This document shows, piece by piece, positions 23,544 through 63,503 of a stretch of DNA of 64,000 nucleotides; the stretch's first letter is position 1; every line of letters starts with the position of its first letter. The position numbers were made by a program, and so were the translations under genes. The notes beneath the pieces are model-generated. The model searched no databases. It was not told the DNA's origin and worked only from the letters and a program-made list of their open reading frames with translations. Origin of the DNA: Alphaproteobacteria bacterium (GTDB taxonomy: Bacteria > Pseudomonadota > Alphaproteobacteria > MPNO01 > UBA830). Location of the stretch: assembly GCA_964291215.2 (NCBI GenBank), contig OZ219791.1, positions 896,001 to 960,000 on the forward strand, given 5' to 3'.

Positions 23544-25781
23544 TCAGCCGATGTCGAGGTGTTCGTTGTACTGATCGACCGTCAGGAAGCCGAAGTCGTC
23601 GGCCGTCAGCATCTCGGACGTCACGCCCCTGACGATGATCTCGTTGCCTGCGAGCTTGGCCGAGGTGATGACCACGCCGCCCGCCTCCTCGCTGTCGGTC
23701 AGCACCAGGTCGGAGAACGAAAGAAACTTCTTCTCGGTCCCGGCATTCGCCCCGGTCTGGGCCAGGAAGACGATCGTGTCGGTCCCGTCCTCGAAGTCGG
23801 TGATAACGTCCACACCGTCGCCCCGGCGGAACAGGAACTCGTCGGCGCCCTCGCCGCCACGCAGACGGTCGGCATCCCTGCCGCCCTCCAGACGGTCGTT
23901 GCCGCCATTGCCGAACAGCCGGTCTTCGCCCGCGCCGCCGGCCAGCACATCGAGATCGCCCTCGCCGCCTTCCAGCCGGTCATTGCCGTCCCCGCCGTCC
24001 AGCGCATCGCTGCCGCGGCCGCCATACAGCATGTCGTCGCCATTGCCGCCATTGAGCGTGTCATCGCCGTCTTCGCCGTACAGCCGGTCGGCGCTCTTCC
24101 CGCCGTTCAGCGTGTCGCCGCCGGCGCCGCCGTGGAGGATGTCGTTGTTGTCATCCCCGAACAGGGAGTCGTCGCCGCTGTCGCCATACAGCGTGTCCTT
24201 GCCATTGCCGCCATACAGCGTGTCGTCGCCGCCGCGCCCGTAGAGCACGTCCGCCGCGCCCTTGCCGTCAATGGTGTCGTTGTCCTTGCCACCGACGAGC
24301 ATGTCCTTCCTGTTCGTGCCCTTGAGCGTCTTCCCGGCCTGCGGGTCCGGATACTCCTCGTTCGGGTCGAAGTCCCAGATGAAGTCGACCTTGTTCCTGA
24401 GCTCCTGCAACTGCTGGGCAGTGAGATCCTCGAAGCCCTGGAACCGGGCCAGCACCGTCTGCGAGTCGCCCGGGCCGGTGACAAGGTGCGTGGTCACATC
24501 GTTCGGGTCCGTGATGCTCCGGACAAACCGGACATCGTCCCACGAGGGTGAGGGTAGTCTTCGCCATTGCGTTATGCTGAACGGCAACCGGATGTAGTCC
24601 TCCTCGACCTTGAAGTCCCCGATGATGTCAGCGGCCCCGTCGCTGCTCCGGCCCTCGCTGATCACGAAGATGTCCCGGCCGGCGCCGCCGTAGAGCACAT
24701 CCCTGCCGTCGCCGCCATCGAGCCTGTCGTGGCCGTCGCCGCCGTAGAGCCCGTCGTCGCCGTCGCCGCCGTAGAGCAGGTCGTTGCCGCCGTCGCCGTC
24801 CAGCGAGTCCATGCCCGCACCGCCCCAAAGCGTGTCGTTGCCGTTGCCGCCTTGCAGCCGGTCGTCGCCGTCCCCGCCGCGGAGGGTATCGTTGCCGTTG
24901 CCGCCGACGAGAGCGTCGTCCCCCGCGCCGCCCTTGAGCGTGTCTTCGCCGCCATGGCCGTAGATATGGTCGGAATGCGCGGTGCCCTGAATGGTGTTGC
25001 CATTGTGGTCGCCGTTGATCCAGTCCCCGCTCGCGGTCTCCAGGAACTCGTCAATCTTCCCTTTCGCCACCCTCACGGCTTCGGCGTCATCGGGATTGAC
25101 TTCCTCCTCGAATTTGAGCTCGGCGAGTACCTTGTTGCCGAGCATGATCCGGAAGTGGGCATTCCCGTAATGGCCGTCGGGGTGGTGGACAATGGTGAGC
25201 TCCGCCCCGTCCCGGATACCGGTCACGTAGATGTAGTCGTACCAATTCCGGAAGTCCTCGATATAGACATAGCTGTCGGGGTTGAGGATGAAGTGGTCGC
25301 CGCCATGGCCGCCATGGAGGAGGCTTCCCTGCGGATCCCCGGCCTGGTTGGAGATCGGCCCCCGGCCAAGCGTCGCGTCGGTCAGCGCGCCGGTGCCGTC
25401 GTCCTGCCGGTTGCTCGCCTTGAGCTTGCCCGCGATCAGGAAGTCGTTGTGGGAGCCGCCGTAGAGGCGGTCGGCGATCTGGTCCTTCTGGTTCCCGACC
25501 AGGATGTCGTTGCCCCAGCCGCCGCGCAGGGTGTTCGGTCCGTTGCCGCCTTCGAGATAGTCGCGCCCGCCACCGCCGTGTGCGTCGCTGCCGCCGCCGG
25601 AATCCTTGAACCAGTCATTGCCCTTCTGTCCGATGAAGGTGTCCTTGCCTGCCCCTCCGATAACGTTCATCGGGCCTTCGTAGGGACTTCCGCCCTCCCC
25701 GCGCCTGGCCTCGTATCGGTTTTCTCCGGTATCCCGGGATCGATCCACCGTCTCTTCGCTGTCGATATAATGAGTTGCCAT
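23544..25781 (-). CDS. RTX-type Ca2+-binding protein, multi-block
   Basis: Three GGxGxDxL blocks separated by unique domains; C-terminus paralogous to the 21966 protein; GAGGAG RBS. Confidence 0.92.
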   Translation of the reverse strand: MATHYIDSEETVDRSRDTGENRYEARRGEGGSPYEGPMNVIGGAGKDTFIGQKGNDWFKDSGGGSDAHGGGGRDYLEGGNGPNTLRGGWGNDILVGNQKDQIADRLYGGSHNDFLIAGKLKASNRQDDGTGALTDATLGRGPISNQAGDPQGSLLHGGHGGDHFILNPDSYVYIEDFRNWYDYIYVTGIRDGAELTIVHHPDGHYGNAHFRIMLGNKVLAELKFEEEVNPDDAEAVRVAKGKIDEFLETASGDWINGDHNGNTIQGTAHSDHIYGHGGEDTLKGGAGDDALVGGNGNDTLRGGDGDDRLQGGNGNDTLWGGAGMDSLDGDGGNDLLYGGDGDDGLYGGDGHDRLDGGDGRDVLYGGAGRDIFVISEGRSSDGAADIIGDFKVEEDYIRLPFSITQWRRLPSPSWDDVRFVRSITDPNDVTTHLVTGPGDSQTVLARFQGFEDLTAQQLQELRNKVDFIWDFDPNEEYPDPQAGKTLKGTNRKDMLVGGKDNDTIDGKGAADVLYGRGGDDTLYGGNGKDTLYGDSGDDSLFGDDNNDILHGGAGGDTLNGGKSADRLYGEDGDDTLNGGNGDDMLYGGRGSDALDGGDGNDRLEGGEGDLDVLAGGAGEDRLFGNGGNDRLEGGRDADRLRGGEGADEFLFRRGDGVDVITDFEDGTDTIVFLAQTGANAGTEKKFLSFSDLVLTDSEEAGGVVITSAKLAGNEIIVRGVTSEMLTADDFGFLTVDQYNEHLDIG

Positions 25782-25819: not shown

Positions 25820-25848
25820 ACAATACCGGGGGGGGGGGGGGAAGTCAA
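25820..25848 (-). promoter_or_regulatory. Sigma70-like promoter with a C14 homopolymer in the spacer (putative phase-variable)
   Basis: Minus strand: TTGACT-t-C14-gg-TATTGT, spacer exactly 17 bp, about 40 bp upstream of the RTX ATG. Confidence 0.75.
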
Positions 25849-25949: not shown

Positions 25950-28900
25950 CTACCAGCGGAGCGCGCCGCGCAGCATGAGGCTGTCTTCGGGGCCCGGCTG
26001 GTGCGCGCCCTCGACGCCGAGAGACAGCCCCGCGCCGAGGCGGTAGCGCGCGCCGAGCCGCAGGGTGCGTGCGCCCGCCAGGCTGAGTCCGGCCCAGGGG
26101 GTGAGCACCGCCAACGGCCCCGGACCGGGCAGGCCGAAGCCGTGGCCCACCTCCGCCTCCAGACGGCTCTCTGCCGCGCCGGATGCAGCCGCGGGCAGGT
26201 CGAACAGCTGCCCGAGGCCGCTCTCCGTGCGCCCGTGCGCGGGACCGAAGGCGAGGAACGTCCCGCGCCCGTCGGCCCCGGGGTCGAGGCGCACAAGCGC
26301 GCTCACTCGTCGCGCTCCGCCTCGTGCGCCGCCAGGAGCCGCGCGCGCAGCTCCGCCGTCAGACCCGCCGCCGGGTCCCGCCAGGTCACGCCCGCCCCGG
26401 CCTCGAGGCCCGCCCCTTCGCCAACGCCGCCGTCATGGCGCACCCCCGCCTCCAGCGCCGGCGTCAGCGTCGCACCGCCCGCCAGCGCGTGCTCGTACGA
26501 GCCCTCCAGCAGCAGCCGCAGACGGGTCGTCTTCGCCGTCAGCCCCTCCAGACCGTCATCGGCCTCCGTGCGCAGACGCGCCGCCGAACCCTCGCCCTTC
26601 ACCGCAAGGCGCGTCATCCCGCCCTCGATCAGCTCTGCATCCTCGGCCAGGACGCTGCGCCCGCCCGCAGACACGCTCCAATGCGTCAGCCCGGCGCTGC
26701 GCGCCGGCGCGCCCTCCTCGGTGATCCGCACCTCGCCGGTCCCGTAGCCGAGGCTCGCCCACAGGGTCGAGCCGTCCGGCGCCAGCCACGCCGCATAGGG
26801 GTGCACCGACGTGATCGTCGTCTCGTGCACGCCCTTCACCCCGCCCGTCTGCGTGTCCAGCTCGCCCCGCGCATGGGAGAGCGCCGCCCCGGCCAGCAGG
26901 TCCGGGCGCACCCGCAGGTCCGCCCCCAGCTGCGCCGACCACAGGCCGCCGTCCCAGGTGACATCCTTCTCCGAACCTGACAGCGACAGCCACTCGCCCC
27001 GGCCCCATACCGCCAACGCGGACGCCTCCCCGGCGCCCGCCGCCAGCGTGAAGGACGCCCCGTCCAGCATCTCGCTCAGCGTCGGCTCCTCCGGGCGCGG
27101 CGACGCCCACTCGTCCTCCACCGGCGGCAGGGCGCCGAACCGCAGCGAGCTGCCCGGCCTGCCTGCCGCCTCGATGCGCCCCGTCACCGCCCCCAGGGTC
27201 TGCGACATCGCCGCCGCCGCCACATGCGGCAGCACCGCCGCATTCACCCGGTTCGCCCGCGCCGCGGAACCCCGGTCGCGCAGCACGCCCGCAGCCGTCG
27301 CGTCGCTCCCCACCGCGTAGTCCGCACCATCGTTCAGCGTGATGCGGTAGGCCTCCGCGCCTTCCGCATCCGCCGCCGTCGGGATCGTCACCACCCCCGT
27401 GGTGCGCGCCGCGGCGCCGAACACCGCATCGAACGAACGCGGCCCCAGACCGCCCGGAACGTCACCGGCATCGAAGCCGCTTGCGTTGCGCGCCGACAGC
27501 GTCAGGCTGACCGTCAGGCTGCCCGTCAGCGCCCGGTCGGCGGTCACCGCGAGGCGGATGTCGTCGCCCTCGGTCACCGCCGCAGGATCCTGCGCCAGCG
27601 TCAGCACCGGCAACAGCGTCGTGTCCGTCACCGCCACCGAATCGATGGTCACCGAACCGTAGCCGCCGCCCGAGGCGCCGTGGGTCAGCGTCGCCGTGTC
27701 GTCCGTCGTGTCCTCGTCACGGGCCGCGCGCACCGTCACCGTCTGCGCCGTGTCCCAGTTGGCGGTCGTGAAGGTCAGGCTGGCCGGTTCCACCGTCACG
27801 TCGCCCGACGCGCCGCCCACCGTCACCGTGACATCGCCCGAGGGTTCCGCGTCCAGCACCACCGTGTAGGCCGCACTGCTGCCCTCCGCCACCGTCAGCG
27901 CGGTCGGCGTCACCGTCACGCTTCCGGCGGGGGTCGTACCGCCGCCGGACGGCGGCGCCGCCGGCGCCACCGGCGTCGCCGTCACCGGCGCATCCGGACC
28001 CGCCCCGTTGCCGGCCCCGTTCACCGCGCGCACCTCGAACTGGTAGGCGGTGCCGTTGGTCAGACCGCTCACCTCGTGGCTGGTGGTGCCCGCACCGGAG
28101 CCGGGAATGTCCTCCCACTCGCCCCACTCGCCGCTGCCGGCCTTCCGCCGCACCTGCCACTTCGTGATGGTCGGGTTGTCCGGGTCGGTCCAGCTCAGCG
28201 TCACCGAGCCGCTGCCCGCCGCGCCGGCAAGGCCGGCCGGCTTCAACGGCGCCGCATCCTTCTCCGCCACGCTCACCACCACATCGGCGATGCTCACCGA
28301 GCCGTAGCCGCCGCCAGACGCGCCGTGAGTCAGCGTCACGGCGGGGTCCGTGTTCGTGTCCGTGCCTGCGTTCACCGTCACCGTCTGCGGCTGGTTCCAG
28401 TCGGTCCGGGTGAAGGTCAGCGCGCTCTGGTTGCCGGTCATGACGGTGTCGGTGTCCACCGTCACGTCCCCCGACGCGCCGCCCACCGTTATCGTCACAT
28501 CCGATGATGGCGGCGTGTTCAGCCGCATCGTGTACGTCCTGCTGCCCCCTTCCGCCACCGTCAGCGCCGCCGTCGACACCGTCACCCCCGGCGTATCGGC
28601 CACCGTCACGTCCACCGTGCCCGCATCCGGGATCGCATCCGCAGAAGCCCCCGTCAGCCGGAAGGCGTGGTTGATCACCGCCGTGCCGTTCGCCACACCG
28701 GTCACCGTCACCGTCCGCGCCGTGTTGTAGTTGGTGGTGGTAAACGTCAGGCTCGCCGGACTCACCCGCGCCGCCGCCGTGGCGTCGCTCGTCACCCGCA
28801 GCGTCCCCGCATACGCCTTCGTCAGCGCCACCGTGTAGGTCGCCGTGGAACCGGGCGCCACCGTCACCGGCGTCCCGGTCAGCGTAAGCGCCGCCGTGGT

Positions 28901-31036
28901 GTCGTCCTTGAAGGTCACCGTACGAATGTTCGACCAGGGACCCTGAAGGTTGCCCGTTCCCCCGGCGACACCCGCCATGCGATAGCCCGTTGCCCGAACC
29001 CGGACCTCGACCGATGCCCCGTCGGGATAGTCCAGCAGAAGCCGATTGTTGCGAGAGCCCGGGTTCTGTCTGGCACTCGCCTGGTTGAGACTGCGATCCG
29101 TCCAGGTGCTGGCCCCCTTCAGCCGGGTCTGCGCTCTCCACCAATGGAACTTGGCCGCGTCCTTCACATAGTCGTCCGCATCCGACAACTCGTTCGAGCC
29201 GCCGGCATGGGTCCAGGTCAGGTCGATCTGCCCGTTCGTCGTCGAGGTCGCCGCCGTCAGCACCGGGGCCGCCGGATCGGTCTTCGCCGTCACCTGGTCC
29301 GACCACACCGACTGCACCCCGGGACGGACCGCCGCAAACAGGCGGAACGTGTAGTCCGTGCCCTTCGTCAGCCCCGTCACCCGGACGCTCGTCCTGCTTC
29401 TGCCCGTGACCGTCGTGGTCGTGTTCCAGCCGCCCGTGCTCTTGTACTGATAGCCCCAGCTCGTTATCGGAATGCCCGTCAAGGCGCTCCAGCTCAGGGT
29501 GACCGAGGCATCGCCCCCGGCCGCCGTCAGGACCGGCTTGGGAACCGTATTCGTCGGCGTCGCCGTCACCTGGTCCGACCACACCGACTGCACACCGGGA
29601 CCGACCGCGGCGAACAGCCGGAACGTGTATTCCGTGCCGATCGTCAGGCCCGTCACCGTGGTGCTCGTCGTGCTGCCGCCGGTGACCGTCCGGGTCCTGA
29701 TCCAGCTGCCGCCCGCGGGCTTGTACTGATAGCCCCAGCTCGCAACCGTCACACCCGACAAGGCGCTCCAGCTCAGGGTGACCCTGGCGTAGCCCGGTTC
29801 GGCGCTCAGCACCGGCTTGGGAACCGCCGCCGACGGCGTCGCCTCCACCACCGCCGACGCGGCGCTGTTGCCGCCGCTGTTCCGCGCCCGGATGCGGAAG
29901 CGGTACTCGCTGTCGTTATCCAGACCCGTCACCGTGTGGGTCGTGGTGTCGGCGTCCGAACCGGAAATCGCGGTCCAGCTGCCCCAGGCGGCGCTGCCCT
30001 TCCTCTGCTGCACCCGATACCGCGTGATCGAATCGTCGTCCGGGTCGGTCCACGTCAGCTTCACCTGACGGTTGCCCGCCTCCGCCGACAGGCCCGTCGG
30101 CGCGGCGGGGACGGCGACGGTGGGGGGATCGTCGTCGTCGGTGATGGTCAGGGTGAGTCTGCCGGAGGTCCAGTCGGACTTGTAACCAAGCAGCCTGATG
30201 GTCTCGTTCGGCTCGTCCCGGGTGTCGCCGAGAATGCGCACTTTCATCGTGCCCTCGGTCTCGCCTTCGGCGATGGAGACCGTGACGCTGGCCGGATAGC
30301 ACCAGTCGGTATCCGCCGGGATCAGCGGCGCCGTGCAGGGATCGCGCCCCTTGTCGGAGCCTTTGGCCGTACCGCTGGGGCTGTCAGAAGTAACGGTGAT
30401 CGAAAAGCCCGCCGGCGCCGCCTCGCCGAGCGTGACGGTCACCGTCACGTCCGTCGAACCGGTGTTGCCCTCGGTGATCGAGGTCGAGGTAGCCGACAAG
30501 GTGATCGTCTTCGTGGTGGCCGCCACCGGCGTGGCGGTGACTTCGTTGGAGGGGCCACCGGAACTTCGATCAAGGCCTTGTTATAGTGTTCCAATGCCCT
30601 CTGACCTGGAAGGTGTAAGCGGAGTTGTTGGTCAGGCTCGTTACAGTGTGACTTCTTATTCCTATGCCGCCGGAGATGCTCGTCCATCCGATGTAGTTGC
30701 CCGTGCCTTTCTTCCACCGGTATTGCCACCGACTGTTGATGCCGTTATTGCCGGTCCACATGAGCGTAACCTGCCCGTCGCCCGCCGTGGCGGTAAGAAC
30801 GGGGGCCTGCGCTTGCGCATCCTGGGGCGCGAGGGCGGCGGCCAGCGCGATGAGGAAGAGGGCAGCGAGTCCCGCCTTCAGGCGGCGGGCGGTTCTCCCG
30901 AGGGCGCCCACCGGTTCAGCCCCGCGCCCTGACTCTTGGGGGGGGGGGGGGGTACAACGAGTTCGCGCGCGCGTGAGGCGCTCCGCCCGAAGAGCCGCAG
31001 GTCATGCATCCCGATATCGCCCGGCGTCCGCGTCAT
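25950..31036 (-). pseudogene. Giant FN3/Calx-beta/Ig-like autotransporter-type surface protein, copy B (frameshifts at the C15 tract, near 30580 and near 26305)
   Basis: Signal peptide (LAALFLIALAAALAPQDAQA), several FN3 repeats, Calx-beta-like DTRDEPNETI, barrel ending LRGALRW; split over ORFs 30570-30911, 26303-30526 and 25950-26306. Confidence 0.85.
30938..30952 (-). repeat. C15 homopolymer in the autotransporter leader coding region
   Basis: G15 on the plus strand; encodes PPPPP in frame with ATG 31036 but out of frame with the downstream signal peptide. Confidence 0.85.
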
Positions 31037-31399
31037 GACCTCATCCTCCCGTGCCTGATTCCAAACCTGCGCCGCGCCCGCACGACCGCAGCGAACCCGC
31101 CGGTGCAACCCATAACCCGTCCGCAGGCCGGTTTCAAGGCGCGCCGCGCCCGATACACGGCGATCCCACGCCAGGTTTGTTGGAAGGGTCGGTTTCGCTT
31201 GTTCAGGATGATTCGCATTTTTGCCGGCTTTTTGTGAAGCGGCGCAGTATCCGTTGTCGTGGAGGCAGCGGATTTTTTTGAGACGACTCCGGAGGGTTTT
31301 GCGCTCCGGGATGTGGTTGTGCGCCTTGCGCGGCCTGATGTCGCTGGAATCGTGCGGTCGACGGCAAGCGCGGCCGCACCGGCGAGGATCATTACGAGA

Positions 31400-31690
31400 C
31401 GGTCTCGCTGGCCGGTATTCGATCCTCAACTGTCACGACGGGGAGACCGCTGCCGTCCACGCCACGCTCGAGACGGCACCGGTTGCCGGCCGTCTGCTCA
31501 CCCTCGACGCGCTCCACACCACCCGCGAGGCTGATCGTCGAGACCCATCGCGCGGACTGATGGTCAAGGGCAACGCACCTTCGAGAGAGCATCAACTGGA
31601 AGATCGCGAGCACGGGACGCTACAGCGAAAAGCCCGCGCATGGCCGCCATCGCACCATCTTTACCCCGCTAGCGAAGATGATCAACTAGT
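31400..31690 (+). mobile_element. ISAs1-family transposase remnant
   Basis: ETAAVHATLETAPVAGRLLTLDALHTTRE...MVKGNAP...EHGTLQR. Confidence 0.6.
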
Positions 31691-35186: not shown

Positions 35187-35507
35187 CTAACTGGTAGGAT
35201 GTCGCCGGGTGAGAGTCCCGGCAGGAAGAGAGGCTAACCACCACTTCCTCCGTGAACCATGCGTCGCGAGGCGAAGCGTTGGGGAACGGCAAGCGTGGGC
35301 TGGGCTATTGAGCCACGAGATACTGCGAACCGGAGTGCCGAGGTCGTGGCCGAAGGCAACACCCTGCGAGCCGCGTTGGTGAGGGGGGCTTCGCGGGGTC
35401 TGAGAACCATGGCCGAAGCAGGGACCTGGGAGGTCTTGCCCCACTGTCGTAGAGGGGTCGCAGAGGAAATTCCGTAAACCGATGATGAACGAGAAGTCAG
35501 ATTCGGC

Positions 35508-63428: not shown

Positions 63429-63503
63429 TGGTGGGCGCGGCTGGGATTGAACCAGCGACCCCTACGATGTCAACGTAGTGCTCTCCCGCTGAGCTACGCG
63501 CCC
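63429..63503 (-). tRNA. tRNA-Val(GAC)
   Basis: GGGCGCGTAGCTCAGCGGGAGAGCACTACGTTGACATCGTAGGGGTCGCTGGTTCAATCCCAGCCGCGCCCACCA: cloverleaf, GAC anticodon, encoded CCA. Confidence 0.97.

Follow-up and report, generated by a model that had tools for sequence, protein, structure and literature searches.

A poly-C leader cassette heading giant FN3-repeat genes: a probable family-level phase-variation switch and a decayed copy in the analysed window

The leader, the C15 tract and the start site

The window, i.e. the whole stretch of 64,000 nucleotides that was analysed, comes from an alphaproteobacterial genome (G000; 6.15 Mb, two contigs, 64% GC) of the same order as G030. On its minus strand it carries a copy of a giant gene for an FN3-repeat protein, preceded by a leader with a run of 15 cytosines and followed by a second poly-C run and an RTX-repeat gene:

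31109 to 31137, minus strand: putative sigma-70-like promoter TTGAAA-17-TATGGG, 72 nt before the ATG
31045 to 31050, minus strand: Shine-Dalgarno (SD) sequence GGGAGG, duplex -10.3 kcal/mol
30878 to 31036, minus strand: leader frame of 52 aa in the assembly, which past the tract is out of frame
30938 to 30952, minus strand: C15 homopolymer (G15 on the plus strand) of poly-Pro codons, one base under the in-frame length
30810 to 30935, minus strand: signal-peptide-like segment ESGRG...LKAGLAALFLIALAAALAPQDAQA, judged by eye, conserved across copies
30909 to 30911, minus strand: alternative GTG start with a weak SD, within a GC-rich hairpin
30570 to 30809, minus strand: first FN3 domain, interrupted where a second frameshift falls between 30594 and 30568 (blastx; fn3 E 1e-3, below the cut-off)
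26303 to 30580, minus strand: 1425 codons that cover the main passenger with FN3 repeats and the start of the beta-barrel, ending in a premature stop
25950 to 26306, minus strand: last ~118 barrel codons, shifted into another frame by the loss of 7 nt that intact paralogs retain
25820 to 25848, minus strand: second tract, C14 (25828 to 25841; G14 on the plus strand) in the spacer of TTGACT-17-TATTGT
23544 to 25781, minus strand: RTX calcium-binding repeat protein of 745 aa (PF00353), downstream of the second tract

A preliminary description of this DNA had proposed that the tract frameshifts the leader, and the layout it gave is borne out: GGGAGG (31050-31045) is followed by an ATG at 31036, and as assembled the frame encodes a peptide of 52 aa (MTRTPG...VVPPPPPKSQG...PPAA) before a stop that ends at 30878. 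From this ATG it is 122 nt to the CCG-GTG that belongs to the signal frame, and a tract of C13 or C16 joins the leader to this frame, whose peptide sequence matches the one quoted there; the assembled C15 allele is out of frame, as had been claimed. The tract begins 84 nt past the conserved SD and ATG and would thus lie within the 5' coding region. The basic, hydrophobic and AQA parts of the signal-like segment were recognised by eye alone.

The same description had named initiation at GTG 30911, downstream of the tract, as an objection to a switch. The SD duplex of ATG 31036 is equalled in only 0.8% of 1500 random GTG contexts, while that of GTG 30911 reaches -5.0 kcal/mol, a value equalled by 18% of random GTGs (both energies were calculated with what we take to be the anti-SD core). 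The cost of opening the site is 20.9 kcal/mol at the GTG versus 10.9 kcal/mol at the ATG, so that its weak SD and its burial in a hairpin disfavour the downstream start. Translation very likely starts at the upstream ATG, which has a strong SD, is kept in 34 of 35 copies of the leader and opens in-frame alleles with intact genes in relatives. Of the 22 type-A copies, 19 have 84, 90 or 96 nt between ATG and tract, while two of the others differ at the tract edge only and one broken gene has +1; most length changes thus preserve the frame, and hexamer slippage alone could produce such lengths. Furthermore, in four distant 50%-cluster representatives (P0010, P0011, P0013 and P0037) the homologous leader is read in frame from a like-placed Met. 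Substitution patterns in the leader carried no coding signal, with similar syn/nonsyn ratios in all three frames, and retention of the Val codon (GTG) in most homologs counts against the upstream start. Gene callers often place the start of these proteins at this GTG.

The TTGAAA-17-TATGGG motif and its spacing are common to 19 of the 22 copies examined from G000, G078, G081 and G082, and were absent from those of G030, G079 and G080 (0 of 10 examined); a consensus promoter scan did not call this putative promoter. From 31036 to the gene body, the minus strand showed no intrinsic terminator. At 31156-31500, immediately before the cassette, two ends of a repeat with dozens of genome copies abut, which elsewhere lie 800-900 nt apart, so that this piece is likely an internally deleted insertion element. 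Elsewhere in the window there are a match to Group II intron D1-D4 (RF02005) at 35212-35408 on the plus strand and a tRNA at 63432-63503 on the minus strand.

The giant protein and the decay of the window's copy

The encoded proteins consist of FN3 repeats and a following beta-domain, which in the intact paralog L039 passes the autotransporter model PF03797 (35.1 bits against a cut-off of 26) and in P0002 scores 50.5 bits, while the pieces of the window's copy and P0001 gave no match to this model at E 0.001. The barrel of L039 (L039:3090-4349, on contig C2 of G000) was predicted by AlphaFold from a 70-sequence alignment with a pLDDT of 85 and 18 long strands; from the single sequence the pLDDT was only 35. 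Foldseek matched the model to outer-membrane barrels, and the 12-stranded autotransporter barrels fit only partly (BrkA: TM 0.51 by target, rmsd 6.7), while a profile search of the PDB returned matches to passenger domains only. Relatives are abundant, with 6341 cluster representatives matching the barrel at E 0.001, i.e. thousands of metagenome sequences. Thus, the term autotransporter used in the preliminary description holds in so far as an intact paralog passes PF03797, but the predicted barrel has ~18 strands rather than 12; it looks like an autotransporter barrel that, as modelled, departs from the 12-strand architecture. From the domains only, we infer an adhesin role of these giant proteins.

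Two more frame changes, which had been missed, lie 3' of the tract in the window's copy: one between 30594 and 30568 (stop ending at 30570) and one at ~26306 (stop ending at 26303). At the first the blastx frame switch falls at the contiguous residues 107/111 of L104, and the break near 30580 is probably real, since there is no long run at this place. The second results from the 7-nt deletion in the barrel, which is also present in the paralog C1:1115670 and is therefore a real shared lesion and not an assembly slip; in the predicted structure it takes away the last seven barrel strands. Intact copies end in an aromatic residue (W, Y or F), whereas the main ORF of the window does not. Because these two frameshifts follow the tract, even an in-frame tract would yield only ~155 aa, comprising the leader, the signal peptide and one FN3 domain, and not the full-length protein. 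The barrel piece has a dS of 0.03-0.05 to the nearest three intact paralogs, which indicates that the damage is recent. Judged from these lesions, the window's copy is a recent pseudogene that a change in tract length could not turn on, and a working switch at this locus is not supported, given the two extra frameshifts, one of them in common with C1:1115670.

The preliminary description had also seen the leader as a second contingency switch 5 kb from a first one. Of this pair, the tract in the promoter spacer is real, but the leader locus of the window does not stand as a working switch. For the 745-aa protein behind the spacer tract, NCBIfam RTX-toxin models scored far below their cut-offs. 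Poly-C in a -35/-10 spacer was also seen at three further sites of the genome (C1:1121776, C2:2939169 and C2:37038); the spacers measure 16, 17 and 18 before three RTX-repeat genes and 20 in the fourth copy, which is not followed by an RTX gene, and all four come after a copy of the giant gene.

Tract length and reading register across the family

The genome-wide paralog check for poly-C leaders that had been suggested found the leader 11 times in G000, with tracts of C12-33 (a twelfth, truncated leader with C9, L023, was left out of the counts). This range argues against the objection that C15 is a miscall of one fixed length. None of the 11 leaders is in frame, which has a probability of 0.012 under random registers. 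Altogether, the cassette of SD, ATG, leader, C(n) and signal segment was found in 35 copies in seven genomes, with n = 5-33; the six further genomes are four Alphaproteobacteria (G030, G078, G080 and G082), one gammaproteobacterium (G079) and one Ca. Binatia (G081). Within the order, the leader was matched in at least 2 of 78 genomes, with 9 candidates scored per genome. Median tract length tracks the host, with 18 in G000, 11-12 in G078 and G030, and 9 in G082.

The long homopolymer in the 5' coding region thus differs in length between copies such that the frame shifts, and all three reading registers occur: among the 34 copies with the ATG (L038, which lacks it, was excluded) the tract is in frame for 5, one base long for 9 and one base short for 20. 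For the 18 copies with an intact barrel end these numbers are 3, 3 and 12; the other 16 lack an intact barrel end. The in-frame alleles are L103, L104, L032, L037 and L101, and in L037 (1602 aa), L101 and L103 the open frame extends intact through the last residue of the barrel, giving full-length proteins of ~1600-2200 aa. In L101 (G082, C1 ~2152012, minus strand) a one-short C9 is offset by an extra G 15-20 nt downstream, which restores the frame of an intact ~1900-aa gene. Likely orthologs were found in opposite states, with C1:773236 (C19) off and L103 (C11) on, at 94% identity over 6.9 kb. In G000, six of the 11 copies are still open for 1281-2164 codons between the tract and the residue that ends the proteins of the family, and the barrels of these six off genes have a dN/dS of ~0.32; the remaining five copies are broken.

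On the DNA level, the genes of this family share 87-94% (G078) and 85-90% (G082) identity with G000 copies over 4-7 kb, while the RpoB proteins of these two genomes are only 70% and 68% identical to that of G000; for the Binatia copy (G081) the values are 74% and 59%, respectively. This discrepancy points to horizontal transfer, and the family genes appear to move between bacterial classes.

A pattern scan of metagenome contigs for the cassette returned two unrelated chance matches only, and one of viral contigs returned none, so that these scans yielded no independent assembly from short reads. Public contigs from three runs of one study (share of words 0.28-0.43) mostly end at the tract. A single contig, from a relative, has at least 31 letters on each side of it. 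Its span exceeds the matching span of the window by 4 bases, which would correspond to the in-frame register; it was not counted as support for switching.

Long C/G runs in the genome are not restricted to this cassette. G000 contains 114 C/G runs of at least 10 versus one A/T run, and 11 of the 114 lie in the leader cassette, so that the tract is not due to chance. With 1.66 runs of at least 11 per 100 kb, G000 has the highest count among the 78 genomes of the order. Such runs expand genome-wide, also within repeat elements and within transposase and recombinase relics, and tract length alone is therefore no evidence of a switch. Nine transposase relics (e.g. C1:908137 and C2:2878286), presumably IS630-like, contain C10-18 in mid-gene. 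A palindromic repeat with a G6-CTAG-C6 core occurs at ~60 sites (e.g. C1:770009 and C2:329491), and in 58 copies its arms are bimodal in length, mostly 5-9 (typically 6), with 13 of 116 at 11-17, which suggests runaway expansion above a threshold. A rate of 1.66 long runs per 100 kb is attained by ~1% of the genera genomes reported on in PMC9262707. Loss of mismatch repair was rejected as a cause of the long runs, since mutS and mutL are intact.

The tract might accordingly be a lesion, lengthening neutrally like any unconstrained C/G run in decaying, horizontally acquired genes, and not a selected switch. The top rank of G000 among its order, the bimodal arms, the tracts inside the transposase and recombinase relics and the five broken copies out of 11 would all fit such an origin, as would the decay of Campylobacter capC, described as independent of its tract (PMC7168839). 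However, the tract sits at the same place in all seven genomes including tract-poor ones, the intact off genes are under purifying selection, strongly interrupted tracts occur in broken genes only (L035 and L099), and both mismatch-repair genes are intact. While 13 of the 116 arms of the control repeat reach at least 10, all 11 leaders do so, and in the run-poor genomes leaders account for 7 of 16 (G030) and 8 of 36 (G078) runs of at least 9. The leader copies share descent and are not independent origins of the tract. On balance we regard a purely neutral origin as improbable.

Several other observations concern long runs. G002, G004, G019, G038, G043, G044 and G082 have tens to more than 100 long C/G runs while their close kin have none, and many of those in G043 sit at contig ends and may be artefacts. 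At C2:2068079 of G000, a G24 lies directly before a 110-codon frame which, judged by a motif, may encode a Cas2-like protein. A degenerate version of the leader with C17-31 and a second tract ~295 nt on is present in eight G000 copies (C1:1247507, C1:2139894, C1:2452754, C2:160543, C2:1144304, C2:1237740, C2:1844694 and C2:2056824), of which seven lie ~545 nt before a lipoprotein-like gene (575-581 aa) with its own start; a control of this gene by the upstream frame is possible.

Plain random slippage does not predict the skew of the registers (5/9/20, n = 34; chi-square p 0.005). One-short alleles are in the majority also when G000 is set aside (14 of 23) and in tracts of at most 11 (8 of 12). 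Three readings of the skew remain, namely slippage out of the on state that is biased toward deletions, a shared under-call in the consensus, or recoding. A deletion bias of long G tracts has been reported for G10-11 in C. jejuni (PMC4085013).

In case of an under-call, long C runs would have been called one base short, and many seemingly off alleles, including C15, would really be in frame and expressed. That exactly one base is lacking in 20 of 34 copies and in 12 of 18 intact ones agrees with this, nanopore consensus is said to have problems with homopolymers of at least 10 (PMC9262707), and all genomes are highly contiguous metagenome-assembled genomes that may share one error bias. By contrast, lengths of 12-33 cannot be miscalls of a single length, the skew is the same in the short tracts, in-frame calls are present in the same assemblies along with nine alleles in the other off register, and the C. 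jejuni bias offers a biological source of the same pattern (PMC4085013). As a control, all 21 C/G runs of 7-9 that lie inside sequence called coding were in frame; at 10 or more there were only two cases, one in frame and one short. An under-call thus has little probability as an explanation of the off alleles.

Recoding would turn the tract into a three-state switch, in which out-of-frame alleles are expressed at graded levels, with ribosomes either re-initiating at GTG 30911 or slipping by -1 on the C run before the hairpin, and one-short is a low-expression state. Beside the skew itself, this could account for the conserved position of both off-frame stops, one of which ends an off register 4 nt before GTG 30911, for a GC-rich hairpin immediately 3' of the tract, which each of the 16 distinct sequences folded is able to form, and for the frequent GTG starts of the gene callers. 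However, the SD of the GTG is weak and its site is costly to open, the pairing of the hairpin varies between copies with a weak consensus (-8.7 kcal/mol), shuffled sequences fold better than the region does (z +2.3), and there is no terminator-like site between leader and gene. Furthermore, the CCC slips described in PMC5009743 are +1, opposite to what the dominant class would require. Recoding is hence doubtful, and we would expect it to be wrong.

Probable phase variation of the family and comparison with known systems

The repeated leader with its C run is best explained, and we think probably, as an on/off switch by slipped-strand phase variation at the level of the gene family. The translational phase switch of the preliminary description is therefore a likely property of the family, but not of the window's copy, which is broken. 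Translation would begin at the upstream ATG, and replication slippage would add or remove cytosines at a high rate. In cells with an in-frame tract, the protein would be exported by Sec and displayed from the outer membrane, while most loci would be off in most cells, so that a population would show shifting subsets of adhesin-like proteins. The cassette probably spreads by duplication and by transfer between unrelated bacteria. A far-reaching version, in which a portable cassette is traded together with giant adhesin-like genes between Alphaproteobacteria, Gammaproteobacteria and Binatia, the preferred one-C-short state is decoded by a -1 slip or by re-initiation, and the result is a graded three-state switch on a new ~18-stranded autotransporter barrel, is unlikely as a whole.

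If the switch is real, opa-like combinatorial surface variation would not be limited to pathogens, and uncultured bacteria of three classes would share one switch cassette together with giant surface proteins. For annotation, it would mean that gene callers beginning at the GTG conceal the switch. For the window's locus alone, the outcome is an ordinary one, i.e. a recent pseudogene. In one open-access library, no paper on this gene family was found, nor literature on phase variation, contingency loci or homopolymers in sponge or marine symbionts.

The layout of the family resembles that of the opa genes of Neisseria, where each of ~11 paralogs has its frame set independently by a repeat within the N-terminal signal region. 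The opa repeat is a pentanucleotide and the proteins are small 8-stranded adhesins, whereas here a mononucleotide run precedes proteins of 1300-2200 aa. In pil1 of Streptococcus gallolyticus, a variable repeat lies in an upstream leader frame and is described as working via a terminator and a separate leader gene (PMC3894217). Attenuation by a leader peptide of this type was rejected, since no intrinsic terminator was found and, in alleles that are in frame, the leader becomes part of the protein. The pilus switch of Bifidobacterium breve, a non-pathogen, operates through replication slippage at a G/C tract that lies 5' within the coding sequence of adhesin genes, and its reference alleles are off (PMC9187656). 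It concerns Gram-positive sortase pili at two loci and switching was measured, whereas the present system is known from assembled sequence.

Among autotransporters, the proposed switch would work like NalP and AusI/MspA of Neisseria meningitidis, which are described as phase-variable single protease genes with 12-stranded barrels (PMC5472700). By contrast, up to 11 paralogous FN3-repeat genes here share one cassette, its tract lies ahead of the signal peptide, and few alleles are on. In Campylobacter, the homopolymer lies in the coding sequence (capD) or upstream of it (capC), and, as in the present family, interspecies exchange and frequent decay via extra frameshifts, as in the window's copy, accompany the variation (PMC7168839). 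The capD/capC tracts are poly-G of ~4-10 in few copies in AT-rich genomes, whereas the tracts described here span C5-33 in GC-rich uncultured bacteria and are found across classes.
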